From NCBI RefSeq assembly GCF_051903065.1, contig NZ_CP178438.1: a DNA stretch of 64,000 nucleotides. One strand, 5' to 3'. The notes below the pieces were generated by a model that made no database searches, was not told the origin of the DNA, and worked only from the letters and a program-made list of their open reading frames with translations. This DNA comes from Escherichia coli. Lineage in GTDB: Bacteria; Pseudomonadota; Gammaproteobacteria; Enterobacterales; Enterobacteriaceae. A program made the position numbers and the translations under genes. Positions 36,802 to 43,090 of this stretch are shown here, one piece after another. The first letter of the stretch is position 1, and each line of letters begins with the position of its first letter.

Positions 36802-36808
36802 AATCGAC

Positions 36809-36843
36809 TTGTAAACCAAATTGAAAAGATTTAGGTTTACAAG
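36809..36843. promoter_or_regulatory. bio operator (BirA site) in the divergent bioA/bioBFCD promoter
   Basis: TTGTAAACCAAATTGAAAAGATTTAGGTTTACAAG imperfect palindrome between bioA and bioB. Confidence 0.85.
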
Positions 36844-36886
36844 TCTACACCGAATTAACAACAAAAAACACGTTTGGAGAAGCCCC

Positions 36887-39078: not shown

Positions 39079-39820
39079 TAAACAAGCCATTGCAGCGGCA
39101 TTTGGTCGGGCAGCCGCGCACTATGAGCAACACGCAGAGTTACAGCGCCAGAGTGCTGACGTCTTACTGGCAATGCTCCCACTGCGTAAATACACCCACG
39201 TACTGGACGCGGGGTGTGGGCCAGGCTGGATGAGCCGCCACTGGCGAGAGCGTCACGCGCAGGTGACGGCGTTAGATCTCTCGCCGCCAATGCTTGCGCA
39301 AGCCCGCCATAAAGATGCCGCAGATCATTATCTGGCGGGAGATATCGAATCCCTGCCGTTAGCGACTGCGACGTTCGATCTTGCATGGAGCAATCTCGCG
39401 GTGCAGTGGTGCGGTAATTTATCCACGGCACTCCGCGAGCTGTATCGGGTGGTGCGCCCCGGAGGCGTGGTCGCGTTTACCACGCTGGTGCAGGGATCGT
39501 TACCCGAACTGCATCAGGCGTGGCAGGCGGTGGACGAGCGCCCGCATGCTAATCGCTTTTTACCGCCAGATGAAATCGAACAGTCACTGAACGGCGTGCA
39601 TTATCGACATCATATTCAGCCCATCACGCTGTGGTTTGATGATGCGCTCAGTGCCATGCGTTCGCTGAAAGGCATCGGTGCCACGCATCTTCATGAAGGG
39701 CGCGACCAGCGAATATTAACGCGTTCACAGTTGCAGCGATTGCAACTGGCCTGGCCGCAACAACAGGGGCGATATCCTCTGACGTATCATCTTTTTTTGG
39801 GAGTGATTGTTCGTGAGTAA
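39065..39820 (+). CDS. bioC: Malonyl-ACP O-methyltransferase BioC
   Basis: 251 aa from [20 protein letters not shown]-binding motif LDAGCGPG. Confidence 0.9.
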
Positions 39821-40490
39821 ACGTTATTTTGTCACCGGAACGGATACCGAAGTGGGGAAAACTGTCGCCAGTTGTGCACTTTTACAAGCCGCAAAGGCAG
39901 CAGGCTATCGGACGGCAGGTTATAAACCGGTCGCCTCTGGCAGCGAAAAGACCCCGGAGGGTTTACGTAATAGTGACGCGCTGGCGTTACAGCGCAACAG
40001 CAGCCTGCAGCTGGATTACGCAACGGTAAATCCTTACACCTTCGCAGAACCCACCTCACCGCACATCATCAGCGCGCAAGAGGGCAGGTCGATAGAATCA
40101 TCGGTAATGAGCGCCGGATTACGCGCGCTTGAACAACAGGCTGACTGGGTGTTAGTGGAAGGCGCTGGCGGCTGGTTTACGCCGCTTTCTGACACTTTCA
40201 CTTTTGCGGATTGGGTAACACAGGAACAACTGCCGGTAATACTGGTGGTTGGCGTGAAACTTGGCTGTATTAATCACGCGATGTTGACGGCACAGGCGAT
40301 ACAACACGCCGGGCTGACTCTGGCGGGTTGGGTGGCGAACGATGTCACGCCTCCGGGAAAACGTCACGCTGAATATATGACCACGCTCACCCGCATGATT
40401 CCCGCGCCGCTGCTGGGAGAGATCCCCTGGCTTGCAGAAAATCCAGAAAATGCGGCAACCGGAAAGTACATAAACCTTGCCTTGTTGTAG
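39813..40490 (+). CDS. bioD: Dethiobiotin synthetase BioD
   Basis: GTG start giving (M)[17 protein letters not shown]-loop; 225 aa. Confidence 0.9.
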
Positions 40491-40502
40491 CCATCCTGTA
40501 TT

Positions 40503-40553
40503 TGGTTAAATTGCGAGCGAGATCGCGTCTTCGATTGACTGCAATTTAACCAA
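40503..40553. terminator. Long inverted repeat (13-bp perfect stems) after bioD, candidate bio operon terminator
   Basis: TTGGTTAAATTGC...GCAATTTAACCAA with about 25-nt loop. Confidence 0.5.
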
Positions 40554-40649
40554 TTAAATTCTAAAATAATCACGAAAAAAATTTTACTTCCGCATCATGC
40601 GGCGAATGTGGGAATTGCCCAGGCGGCGGGGGATAGGGGCTGCAGACAG

Positions 40650-40672
40650 TTATCCACTATTCCTGTGGATAA
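40650..40672. promoter_or_regulatory. Inverted pair of DnaA-box-like 9-mers upstream of uvrB
   Basis: TTATCCACT and TGTGGATAA (consensus TTATCCACA) separated by 5 bp. Confidence 0.55.
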
Positions 40673-40976
40673 CCATGTGTATTAGAGTTAGAAAACACGA
40701 GGCAAGCGAGAGAATACGCGGCTTGCACGCGAATTGGCGTTAAAGACGGCTCAAAGAAATATCTTTTATTTTTTAACTGGTTAGATAATTGCAATGGCAG
40801 TCACTGAACAGGCATCTCTTGCCATAAAACTGACATCACTCATCTTGACAAATGTTAAAAAAGCCGTTGCTTTGGGGATAACCCGGTAAGGTCCGAGTTT
40901 TATCTCGCCACAGAGTAAATTTTACTCATGATTGACAGCGGAGTTTACGCTGTAACAGAAATATTATGGTGATGAA

Positions 40977-40992
40977 CTGTTTTTTTATCCAG
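40977..40992. promoter_or_regulatory. LexA (SOS) box of uvrB overlapping the promoter
   Basis: CTGTTTTTTTATCCAG (CTG-N10-CAG) immediately followed by TATAAT. Confidence 0.85.
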
Positions 40993-41068
40993 TATAATTT
41001 GTTGGCATAATTAAGTACGACGAGTAAAATTACATACCTGCCCGCCCAACTCCTTCAGGTAGCGACTC

Positions 41069-43090
41069 ATGAGTAAACCGTTCAAACTGAATTCCGCTTT
41101 TAAACCTTCTGGCGATCAGCCAGAGGCGATTCGACGTCTCGAAGAGGGGCTGGAAGATGGCCTGGCGCACCAGACGTTACTTGGTGTGACTGGTTCCGGG
41201 AAAACCTTTACCATTGCCAATGTCATTGCTGACCTTCAGCGCCCTACCATGGTACTTGCGCCCAACAAAACGCTGGCGGCCCAGCTGTATGGCGAAATGA
41301 AAGAGTTCTTCCCGGAAAACGCGGTGGAATATTTCGTCTCCTACTACGACTACTATCAGCCAGAAGCCTATGTACCGAGTTCCGACACCTTCATTGAGAA
41401 AGATGCCTCGGTAAACGAACATATCGAACAGATGCGTTTGTCCGCCACCAAAGCGATGCTGGAGCGGCGTGATGTGGTTGTGGTCGCGTCTGTTTCCGCG
41501 ATTTATGGTCTGGGCGATCCTGATTTATATCTCAAGATGATGCTCCATCTCACGGTCGGTATGATTATCGATCAGCGCGCGATTCTGCGCCGACTGGCGG
41601 AGCTGCAATACGCTCGTAATGATCAAGCATTCCAGCGTGGTACTTTCCGTGTTCGTGGCGAGGTGATTGATATCTTCCCGGCAGAATCGGATGACATTGC
41701 ACTTCGCGTGGAACTGTTTGACGAGGAAGTGGAACGATTGTCGTTATTTGACCCGCTGACCGGACAGATTGTTTCCACCATTCCACGTTTTACCATCTAC
41801 CCGAAAACGCACTACGTCACACCGCGCGAGCGCATCGTACAGGCGATGGAGGAGATCAAAGAAGAGCTGGCCGCCAGACGCAAAGTGCTATTGGAAAACA
41901 ACAAACTGCTGGAAGAGCAGCGGCTGACCCAGCGTACCCAGTTTGATCTGGAGATGATGAACGAGCTGGGCTACTGTTCGGGGATTGAAAACTACTCGCG
42001 CTTCCTCTCCGGTCGTGGACCGGGTGAGCCACCGCCGACGCTGTTTGATTACCTGCCTGCCGATGGGCTGCTGGTGGTCGATGAATCTCACGTCACCATT
42101 CCACAAATTGGCGGCATGTATCGCGGTGACCGGGCGCGTAAAGAGACACTGGTGGAGTACGGCTTCCGCCTGCCATCAGCGCTGGATAACCGTCCGCTGA
42201 AATTTGAAGAGTTCGAAGCATTAGCGCCGCAAACCATCTATGTTTCGGCGACGCCGGGTAATTACGAGCTGGAAAAATCCGGCGGCGATGTGGTGGATCA
42301 GGTGGTGCGTCCAACCGGATTGCTTGACCCGATTATCGAAGTGCGGCCGGTGGCGACACAGGTTGATGATCTTCTTTCGGAGATTCGTCAGCGAGCGGCA
42401 ATTAACGAACGCGTACTGGTTACAACTCTGACCAAGCGGATGGCGGAAGATCTCACGGAATATCTCGAAGAACACGGCGAGCGCGTGCGTTATCTTCACT
42501 CAGATATCGACACCGTCGAACGTATGGAGATTATCCGCGACTTGCGTCTGGGCGAGTTCGACGTGCTGGTGGGGATCAACTTACTGCGTGAAGGTCTGGA
42601 TATGCCGGAAGTTTCGCTGGTGGCGATCCTCGACGCTGACAAAGAAGGCTTCCTGCGTTCCGAACGTTCGTTGATCCAGACCATTGGTCGTGCGGCACGT
42701 AACGTTAACGGTAAAGCGATTCTCTACGGCGATAAGATCACCCCGTCAATGGCGAAAGCGATTGGCGAAACCGAACGTCGCCGCGAGAAACAGCAGAAGT
42801 ACAACGAGGAACACGGCATTACGCCGCAAGGCTTGAACAAGAAAGTGGTCGATATCCTGGCGTTGGGGCAGAACATTGCTAAAACCAAAGCGAAGGGCAG
42901 AGGAAAATCGCGACCGATTGTTGAGCCGGATAATGTGCCGATGGATATGTCGCCTAAAGCGTTGCAACAGAAAATCCATGAGCTGGAAGGGTTAATGATG
43001 CAACACGCGCAGAATCTGGAGTTCGAAGAAGCGGCGCAAATTCGTGACCAGTTGCATCAGCTGCGTGAATTGTTTATCGCGGCTTCGTGA
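41069..43090 (+). CDS. uvrB: Excinuclease ABC subunit B UvrB
   Basis: 673-aa ORF with Walker A GVTGSGKT and helicase motifs. Confidence 0.97.

Follow-up and report, generated by a model that had tools for sequence, protein, structure and literature searches.

What does the 578-bp spacer between the biotin operon and uvrB of Escherichia coli contain, and do the elements that can be discerned in it belong together? RefSeq annotates no feature between bioD and uvrB in the K-12 or the O157 records. The window, i.e., the whole stretch of 64,000 nucleotides of E. coli DNA that was analysed, is 100% identical over 701 bases around the bioD-uvrB gap to E. coli O157:H7 strain PV15-279, and this 701-base segment is found at a minimum of 95% identity, between the annotated bioD and uvrB genes, in 5424 of 5426 complete E. 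coli genomes. A first inspection of the sequence only (the sequence-only reading) had placed in this spacer a long inverted repeat, acting either as a terminator or as a protein-binding site, and two DnaA-box-like 9-mers facing each other; its assignment of the two flanking genes agrees with the RefSeq annotation of the identical O157:H7 record. Our analysis suggests that the span between bioD and uvrB comprises two unrelated elements, namely, the DnaA-reactivating sequence 1 (DARS1) and a 13-bp inverted repeat, with an overall confidence of about 0.8 that blends a near-certain reading of the former with a roughly even one of the latter. The coordinates of all the features considered are collected in Table 1.

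Table 1. Features of the bioD-uvrB region, given as positions in the 64-kb window.
Feature	Position	Strand	Basis and remarks
bioD coding sequence, last gene of bioBFCD	39813..40490	+	ORF list; stop TAG 40488-40490; dethiobiotin synthase in the RefSeq annotation of the 100%-identical O157:H7 record
Long inverted repeat, proposed bioBFCD transcript 3' stem-loop	40499..40556	+	16-nt arms 40499-40514 / 40541-40556, 94% complementary
DARS1 conserved left flank, GGCTGCAGACAG	40638..40649	.	Conservation profile, 67 Enterobacterales loci
DARS1 DnaA box I, TTATCCACT	40650..40658	+	One mismatch to TTATNCACA; DnaA-box7 in the numbering of PMC6015884
DARS1 DnaA box II, TGTGGATAA	40664..40672	-	Minus strand reads the full consensus TTATCCACA; overlaps the proposed LexA-box4
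DARS1 DnaA box III, TGTGTATTA (minus strand TAATACACA)	40676..40684	-	3 bp from box II, same orientation
DARS1 right-flank conserved blocks GAGTTAGAAAAC, AAGCGAGAG, ACGCGGC, GAATTG, GCGAAA	40685..40747	.	Invariant or nearly so, 67 Enterobacterales species
Additional DnaA-box-like site, TTATCCCCA	40873..40881	-	One mismatch; between uvrBp3 and uvrBp2
LexA box CTGTTTTTTTATCCAG	40977..40992	+	Within uvrBp2; published LexA box AACTGTTTTTTTATCCAGTA
uvrBp1 hexamers TTGGCA and TAAAAT	41002-07 and 41025-30	+	Promoter scan
uvrB coding sequence	41069..43090	+	ORF list and RefSeq annotation

The definition of DARS1 used here was drawn from later papers that cite the original description. A DARS core is composed of three DnaA boxes, with boxes I and II opposed and 5 bp apart, and in DARS1 the box II is a complete consensus (Sugiyama et al., 2019, PMC6868365). 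Three boxes, named DnaA-box5, DnaA-box6, and DnaA-box7, compose DARS1 and are located on the uvrBp3 promoter (Wurihan et al., 2018, PMC6015884). The window presents the layout 9+5+9+3+9, i.e., TTATCCACT-ATTCC-TGTGGATAA-CCA-TGTGTATTA, in which boxes I and II are disposed head-to-head with 5 bp between them and form a perfect 9-nt inverted repeat (GTTATCCAC / GTGGATAAC), and in which box III has the orientation of box II and lies 3 bp away from it. Boxes II and III are contained in the same string as the "double DnaA box" quoted for DARS1 in a ChIP-seq study, cTAATACACAtggTTATCCACAg (PMC11317965), which is the minus strand of positions 40663-40685. Box II is a complete consensus, and the three boxes are located between bioD and uvrB. 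Because the layout, the 5-bp spacing, the consensus box II, and the locus all coincide with the published DARS core, the DnaA boxes at 40650-40684 can be identified, practically with certainty, as the core of DARS1. The two facing 9-mers of the sequence-only reading are indeed present as boxes I and II; the third box, which is part of the DARS core, and the DARS1 identity itself were absent from it. DARS1 is an already known and extensively characterised element.

The head-to-head pair of boxes is what distinguishes this site within the window. A single match to TTATNCACA is not above chance, with 2 occurrences in the window for 2.1 expected, and the pattern of the box pair is unique in the 64 kb and had no match in shuffled sequences. 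When compared with K-12, the window is identical from 40643 to 40700, spanning the DARS1 core, and two single-base differences, both leftward of box I, occur at 40612 and 40642. The window copy thus shares with the K-12 DARS1 the locus, the three boxes, the 5-bp and 3-bp spacers, and an identical core and right flank, with no difference of substance. DARS2 of K-12, located in the rppH/ygdT-mutH intergenic region, displays the same 9+5+9+3+9 arrangement (TTATTCACC-TTTTC-TGTGGATAG-AGT-TGTGAAGAA), its boxes I and II also facing head-to-head and its box III following box II in tandem. It differs from DARS1 in that its box II has one mismatch to the consensus and in that it requires IHF and Fis on a long regulatory region, neither of which DARS1 needs (PMC6868365).

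The main role described for DARS1 is the nucleotide exchange on ADP-DnaA for replication control. Release of ADP from ADP-DnaA and regeneration of ATP-DnaA have been shown for the K-12 sequence, and DARS1 is active in vitro on a short fragment, one of 70 bp being cited (PMC6868365). According to the mechanism published in that work for K-12, ADP-DnaA binds first to the consensus box II and then recruits further protomers to box I, in a head-to-head contact, and to box III, in a head-to-tail one. Through the head-to-head contact between AAA+ domains, for which Gln208 is required, the protomers sitting on boxes I and II lose their ADP, and the resulting apo-DnaA rebinds ATP, yielding more initiation-competent DnaA (PMC6868365). 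The region that flanks the core boxes has been reported to stimulate the dissociation of ADP, and the deletion of DARS1 results in fewer origins per mass and in reduced fitness. Given its identity with the K-12 core, the DARS1 copy of the window would be expected to release ADP as well.

The binding of DnaA to the uvrB regulatory region, as stated in the sequence-only reading, proved to be correct. In K-12, DNase I footprinting placed DnaA on all three boxes, where footprints of both DnaA and LexA were obtained (PMC6015884), binding of DnaA to DARS1 in vitro was observed by EMSA (PMC6868365), and ChIP-seq detected in vivo a DnaA-bound region, labelled "DARS1", upstream of uvrB with a 16-fold coverage (PMC11317965). 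The coordinate given for that ChIP-seq peak, 813,331, corresponds to approximately position 40874 of the window, which coincides with the TTATCCCCA site and lies about 200 bp rightward of the core. As to the position of the boxes relative to the uvrB promoters, the elements of P1 and P2 come after the LexA box, and the DnaA boxes are thus located upstream of P1, P2, and the LexA box, as had been proposed; the proposal does not extend to the published third promoter, uvrBp3, which the boxes overlap. We have also observed that in E. coli ZH063 (NZ_CP014522.1) the match to the spacer breaks at about 40836 and continues elsewhere, in two places of the record, which suggests an insertion between uvrBp3 and uvrBp2 in this strain.

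DnaA represses uvrBp3 together with LexA through the DARS1 boxes, and a TG-to-CA change in box II raises the activity of this promoter 5.9-fold (PMC6015884). This repression would be all that the boxes do if they were a transcriptional operator of uvrB only, with no part in DnaA nucleotide exchange. We consider this restricted role very improbable, given that the release of ADP by DARS1 could be reconstituted in vitro and analysed with mutations (PMC6868365), that the ΔDARS1 deletion lowers the origins-per-mass ratio and affects fitness, and that the box I-II-III layout is common to DARS2, which is not a uvrB operator. The repression of uvrBp3 and the nucleotide exchange on DnaA coexist at DARS1 and are not competing functions. 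The palindrome formed by boxes I and II might alternatively be taken for an RNA hairpin that terminates bio transcripts reading through the spacer, and it was in fact flagged by the promoter/terminator scan as a 9-bp stem with a 7-nt loop and 5 T in the next 8 bases, with a predicted folding energy of -11.6 kcal/mol. There is very little to recommend this proposal, since the scan found 1 hit where 1.0 is expected from shuffles, the tail CAUGUGUAUU is not a U-run, and the sequence is invariant, without covariation. The palindromy stems from the fact that two DnaA-binding boxes are opposed, and the terminator-like flag is a by-product of that arrangement.

The identification of DARS1 can be extended by its conservation. 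Using bioD as bait, we have fetched 80 genome loci, and the 23-mer TTATCCAC[T/C]ATT[C/T/A]CTGTGGATAA is present in 70 of them, in genera that include Escherichia, Citrobacter, Salmonella, Enterobacter, Klebsiella, Kosakonia, Pantoea, Erwinia, and Pectobacterium. This 23-mer, which covers boxes I and II, hardly varies upstream of uvrB among 67 Enterobacterales species, and in the alignment of these species the near-invariance runs from about 40638 through box III. The conserved blocks of the right flank are probably the stretch for which a stimulation of ADP release has been reported, and probably also represent the first part of the uvrBp3 transcript. Within this flank, the E. coli segments GCAAGC and GCTTGC (40701-06 and 40722-27) can pair with each other, and the pairing is not kept in other genera. 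This loss suggests that the conservation of the right flank is sequence-specific, as in a DNA site or a promoter, and not structural.

In most of the genera that carry the 23-mer, a convergent ORF of about 240 aa, resembling the ATPase of ABC transporters, is located between bioD and the 23-mer. In Klebsiella pneumoniae (locus L075) this ORF occupies positions 2165-2887, and it is found in the same position in most of the Enterobacter, Klebsiella, Kosakonia, Lelliottia, and Citrobacter freundii-group loci (L011-L063). It overlaps the 3' end of bioD; in some loci a gene of about 1 kb separates the 23-mer from bioD. The ORF is absent in Escherichia, C. koseri, C. amalonaticus, and C. sedlakii, and Citrobacter sp. 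R56 (L017) seemingly retains only a remnant of it; in Salmonella, the bioD-uvrB spacer is shorter. The 23-mer stays with uvrB across the intervening gene, and DARS1 therefore belongs with uvrB and not with bioD.

The second element of the spacer is the inverted repeat that follows bioD. The sequence-only reading had described it as a perfect repeat of 13 bp, and this holds, with a true start at 40502, one base off the start that it had given. The perfect 13-nt arms, TTGGTTAAATTGC (40502-40514) and GCAATTTAACCAA (40541-40553), are separated by a spacer of 26 nt, and the repeat begins 12 nt past the bioD stop codon. It is the sole perfect inverted repeat of at least 13 nt with a loop of no more than 40 nt in the 64-kb window, and such repeats appeared at a mean of 0.03 in 100 dinucleotide-preserving shuffles, only 2 of which contained any. 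The folding calculation proposed as a check yielded -20.9 kcal/mol for the plus strand (z = -2.4), the fold of the minus strand being slightly better (-22.9 kcal/mol; z = -3.0). A single GATC (Dam site) is found at 40522-40525, within the conserved 5' half of the repeat spacer (GCGAGCGAGATCGCG). This 5' half is still recognisable in Citrobacter (GCGAGCAAGATCTCG), where the repeat itself is not. A Rfam scan of positions 40300-41200 with E-values up to 10 returned only noise (mir-7957, E = 0.83; U7, E = 9.1).

Among the loci fetched, the inverted repeat was seen only in Escherichia, i.e., in E. coli, E. albertii, E. whittamii, and genomes of the cryptic clades. The sequences of C. koseri, C. amalonaticus, C. 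sedlakii, and Intestinirhabdus align over the spacer and have no right arm. At the sensitivity of blastn, the 90-nt segment that carries the repeat occurs in one place per genome in 5424 of the 5426 E. coli genomes, and a dispersed repeat of the REP/BIME, ERIC, or MITE-like types was rejected on account of this single copy. The repeat is not part of DARS1, because Citrobacter, Salmonella, Klebsiella, and other genera that keep DARS1 lack it; in the loci examined, it lies outside the conserved block and is missing beyond Escherichia while DARS1 persists.

Within Escherichia, the arms of the repeat have changed less than the spacer between them, with 19 of 26 columns invariant in the arms and 10 of 26 in the spacer (Fisher p = 0.025; 13 Escherichia sequences). 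In these Escherichia sequences, 98.1% of the alignment cells of the stem are paired, and the plus strand has G·U or U·G pairs in 7 of the 8 variant cells, which would be C·A on the minus strand. A compensatory change from C-G to U-A is found in E. coli Z1323HEC0300, with the U·G intermediate in strain H22, and true mismatches in the stem are found in E. whittamii, one other lineage, and Escherichia sp. MOD1-EC7003. The covariation of the stem, with one compensatory pair, is not significant, 189 of 500 shuffles reaching the observed values.

Other hairpins occupy the same position in genera that lack the repeat. In Salmonella, the hairpin GCAGGAUC-AGAC-GAUCCUGC, followed by UGUUCU, comes directly after bioD, and in Pectobacterium fontis a stem also directly after bioD is followed by AUUUUUUAUUU; both have the appearance of ordinary intrinsic terminators. 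The stem after bioD in Intestinirhabdus is GC-rich and 13 bp long. It appears, therefore, that a hairpin after bioD is a positional constant whose sequence is lineage-specific, as would be expected of a structure at the end of an operon.

With roughly even odds, we propose that the inverted repeat is a stem-loop at the 3' end of the bioBFCD mRNA, working as a weak and leaky terminator, as a barrier to 3' exonucleases, or as both. Such a hairpin would limit the transcription that runs on from the biotin operon towards DARS1 and uvrB. As in intrinsic terminators and protective 3' stem-loops, a stable hairpin comes right after the last stop codon of the operon, on the transcribed strand, and is followed by a stretch of A/U only. 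It departs from intrinsic terminators in its AT-rich stem, with 4 G-C pairs in 13, in its loop of 26 nt, and in its tail (UUAAAUUCU / UUAAAUUCUAAAAUAAUC), which is A/U-only over 7 nt and not a U-run, and the terminator scan did not call it. The sequence downstream of the repeat is rich in G and not in C, a composition that does not suggest a loading site for Rho. A terminator acting on the minus strand was rejected, as that strand has no T-run and E. coli has no convergent gene at this place. Because available biotin keeps the bio operon repressed, the missing bioD 3' end is weak evidence, no entry for it having been found in the searchable supplementary tables of Adams 2021, TERMITe, and SMRT-Cappable-seq. 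A preprint assigns bioBFCD to the same transcription-unit cluster as uvrB, a grouping that implies read-through and hence a leaky structure. A full-text search of the literature for a bioBFCD terminator gave nothing useful.

Two other explanations of the repeat have been weighed against the 3' stem-loop. The repeat could lack any selected function and be a lineage-specific palindrome produced by a local rearrangement of the spacer, e.g., after the loss of the convergent ABC-ATPase-like gene. Its restriction to one genus, the homologous Citrobacter spacer that aligns with only the left half present, the many genera with the convergent gene of about 240 aa in the gap, the lack of significant covariation, and the mismatches in some Escherichia species are consistent with such an origin. 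However, the arms are essentially intact over the E. coli phylogroups, E. albertii, E. whittamii, and the cryptic clades while the spacer and flanks diverge (p = 0.025), a compensatory change is accompanied by its wobble intermediate, and long perfect palindromes are expected to decay without selection, so that we regard an unselected palindrome as possible but doubtful. Somewhat less probable still is a function at the DNA level, in which DARS1 or uvrBp3 would be modulated through the repeat, either by a dimeric or tetrameric protein bound to it or by its forming a cruciform sensitive to supercoiling. The conservation of the arms is one of sequence, without significant covariation, the repeat is only about 95 bp away from DARS1 box I, and the uvrBp3 reporter fragments and the ΔDARS1 allele include the repeat without separating its contribution. 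Against this, half-sites spaced 39 bp from centre to centre, as they are here, are atypical for known regulators, no second copy of the repeat exists anywhere in the E. coli genomes, and the variants favour G·U pairing on the plus strand. Moreover, DARS1 is conserved in 67 species and the repeat is confined to Escherichia, and the DARS1 fragment active in vitro, cited as 70 bp, is too short to reach it (PMC6868365). The evidence leans to a 3' hairpin of the plus-strand RNA over a protein-binding site, which narrows the question that the sequence-only reading had left between terminator and protein-binding site. On the whole, the repeat would be at most an ordinary operon-end hairpin of unusual shape.

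The bio locus contains a second long perfect inverted repeat, with 12-nt arms (GACTTGTAAACC / GGTTTACAAGTC) at 36806-36846, in the divergent promoter region between bioA and bioB, which we take to be the bioO operator bound by BirA. When both are compared by eye, the arms are different (GACTTGTAAACC in bioO vs. TTGGTTAAATTGC in the repeat distal to bioD), and so is the spacing (16-18 nt vs. 26 nt); thus, nothing in this comparison suggests that BirA binds the repeat distal to bioD.

The separation of the two elements matters for the interpretation of the phenotypes of existing constructs, because the palindrome is contained in the common ΔDARS1 deletions and in the uvrBp3 reporters. The deletion in the ΔDARS1::cat allele, as given by its primers, starts immediately past the bioD stop codon and reaches the uvrBp2 region (PMC4585315), which corresponds to approximately 40497 to 40960 in the window (about 812,954-813,417 in K-12), and it removes the repeat, uvrBp3, and all the DnaA boxes of the spacer along with DARS1. 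The effects of the hairpin, uvrBp3, and DARS1 are therefore not separated in such alleles. Likewise, the uvrBp3-lacZ fragment from -567 to -280 (PMC6015884) contains the inverted repeat.

It is conceivable, as an outside chance, that the Escherichia-specific hairpin insulates DARS1 from the bioBFCD operon and its regulation by biotin. If this were the case and the hairpin were leaky, biotin limitation would derepress the bio operon, and the RNA polymerase would cross DARS1 and uvrBp3 and displace the DnaA complexes, coupling the biotin or fatty-acid status of the cell to the reactivation of DnaA and to the initiation of replication.

DARS1 belongs to the four chromosomal sites known to govern the balance between ATP-DnaA and ADP-DnaA in E. 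coli, and its recognition in this spacer is a correct annotation and not a discovery. What the present analysis adds is that the core of DARS1 and the blocks of its right flank are almost invariant in 67 Enterobacterales species, tracking uvrB and not bioD, and that the palindrome nearby is an element of its own, restricted to one genus, at which the bio transcript probably ends.
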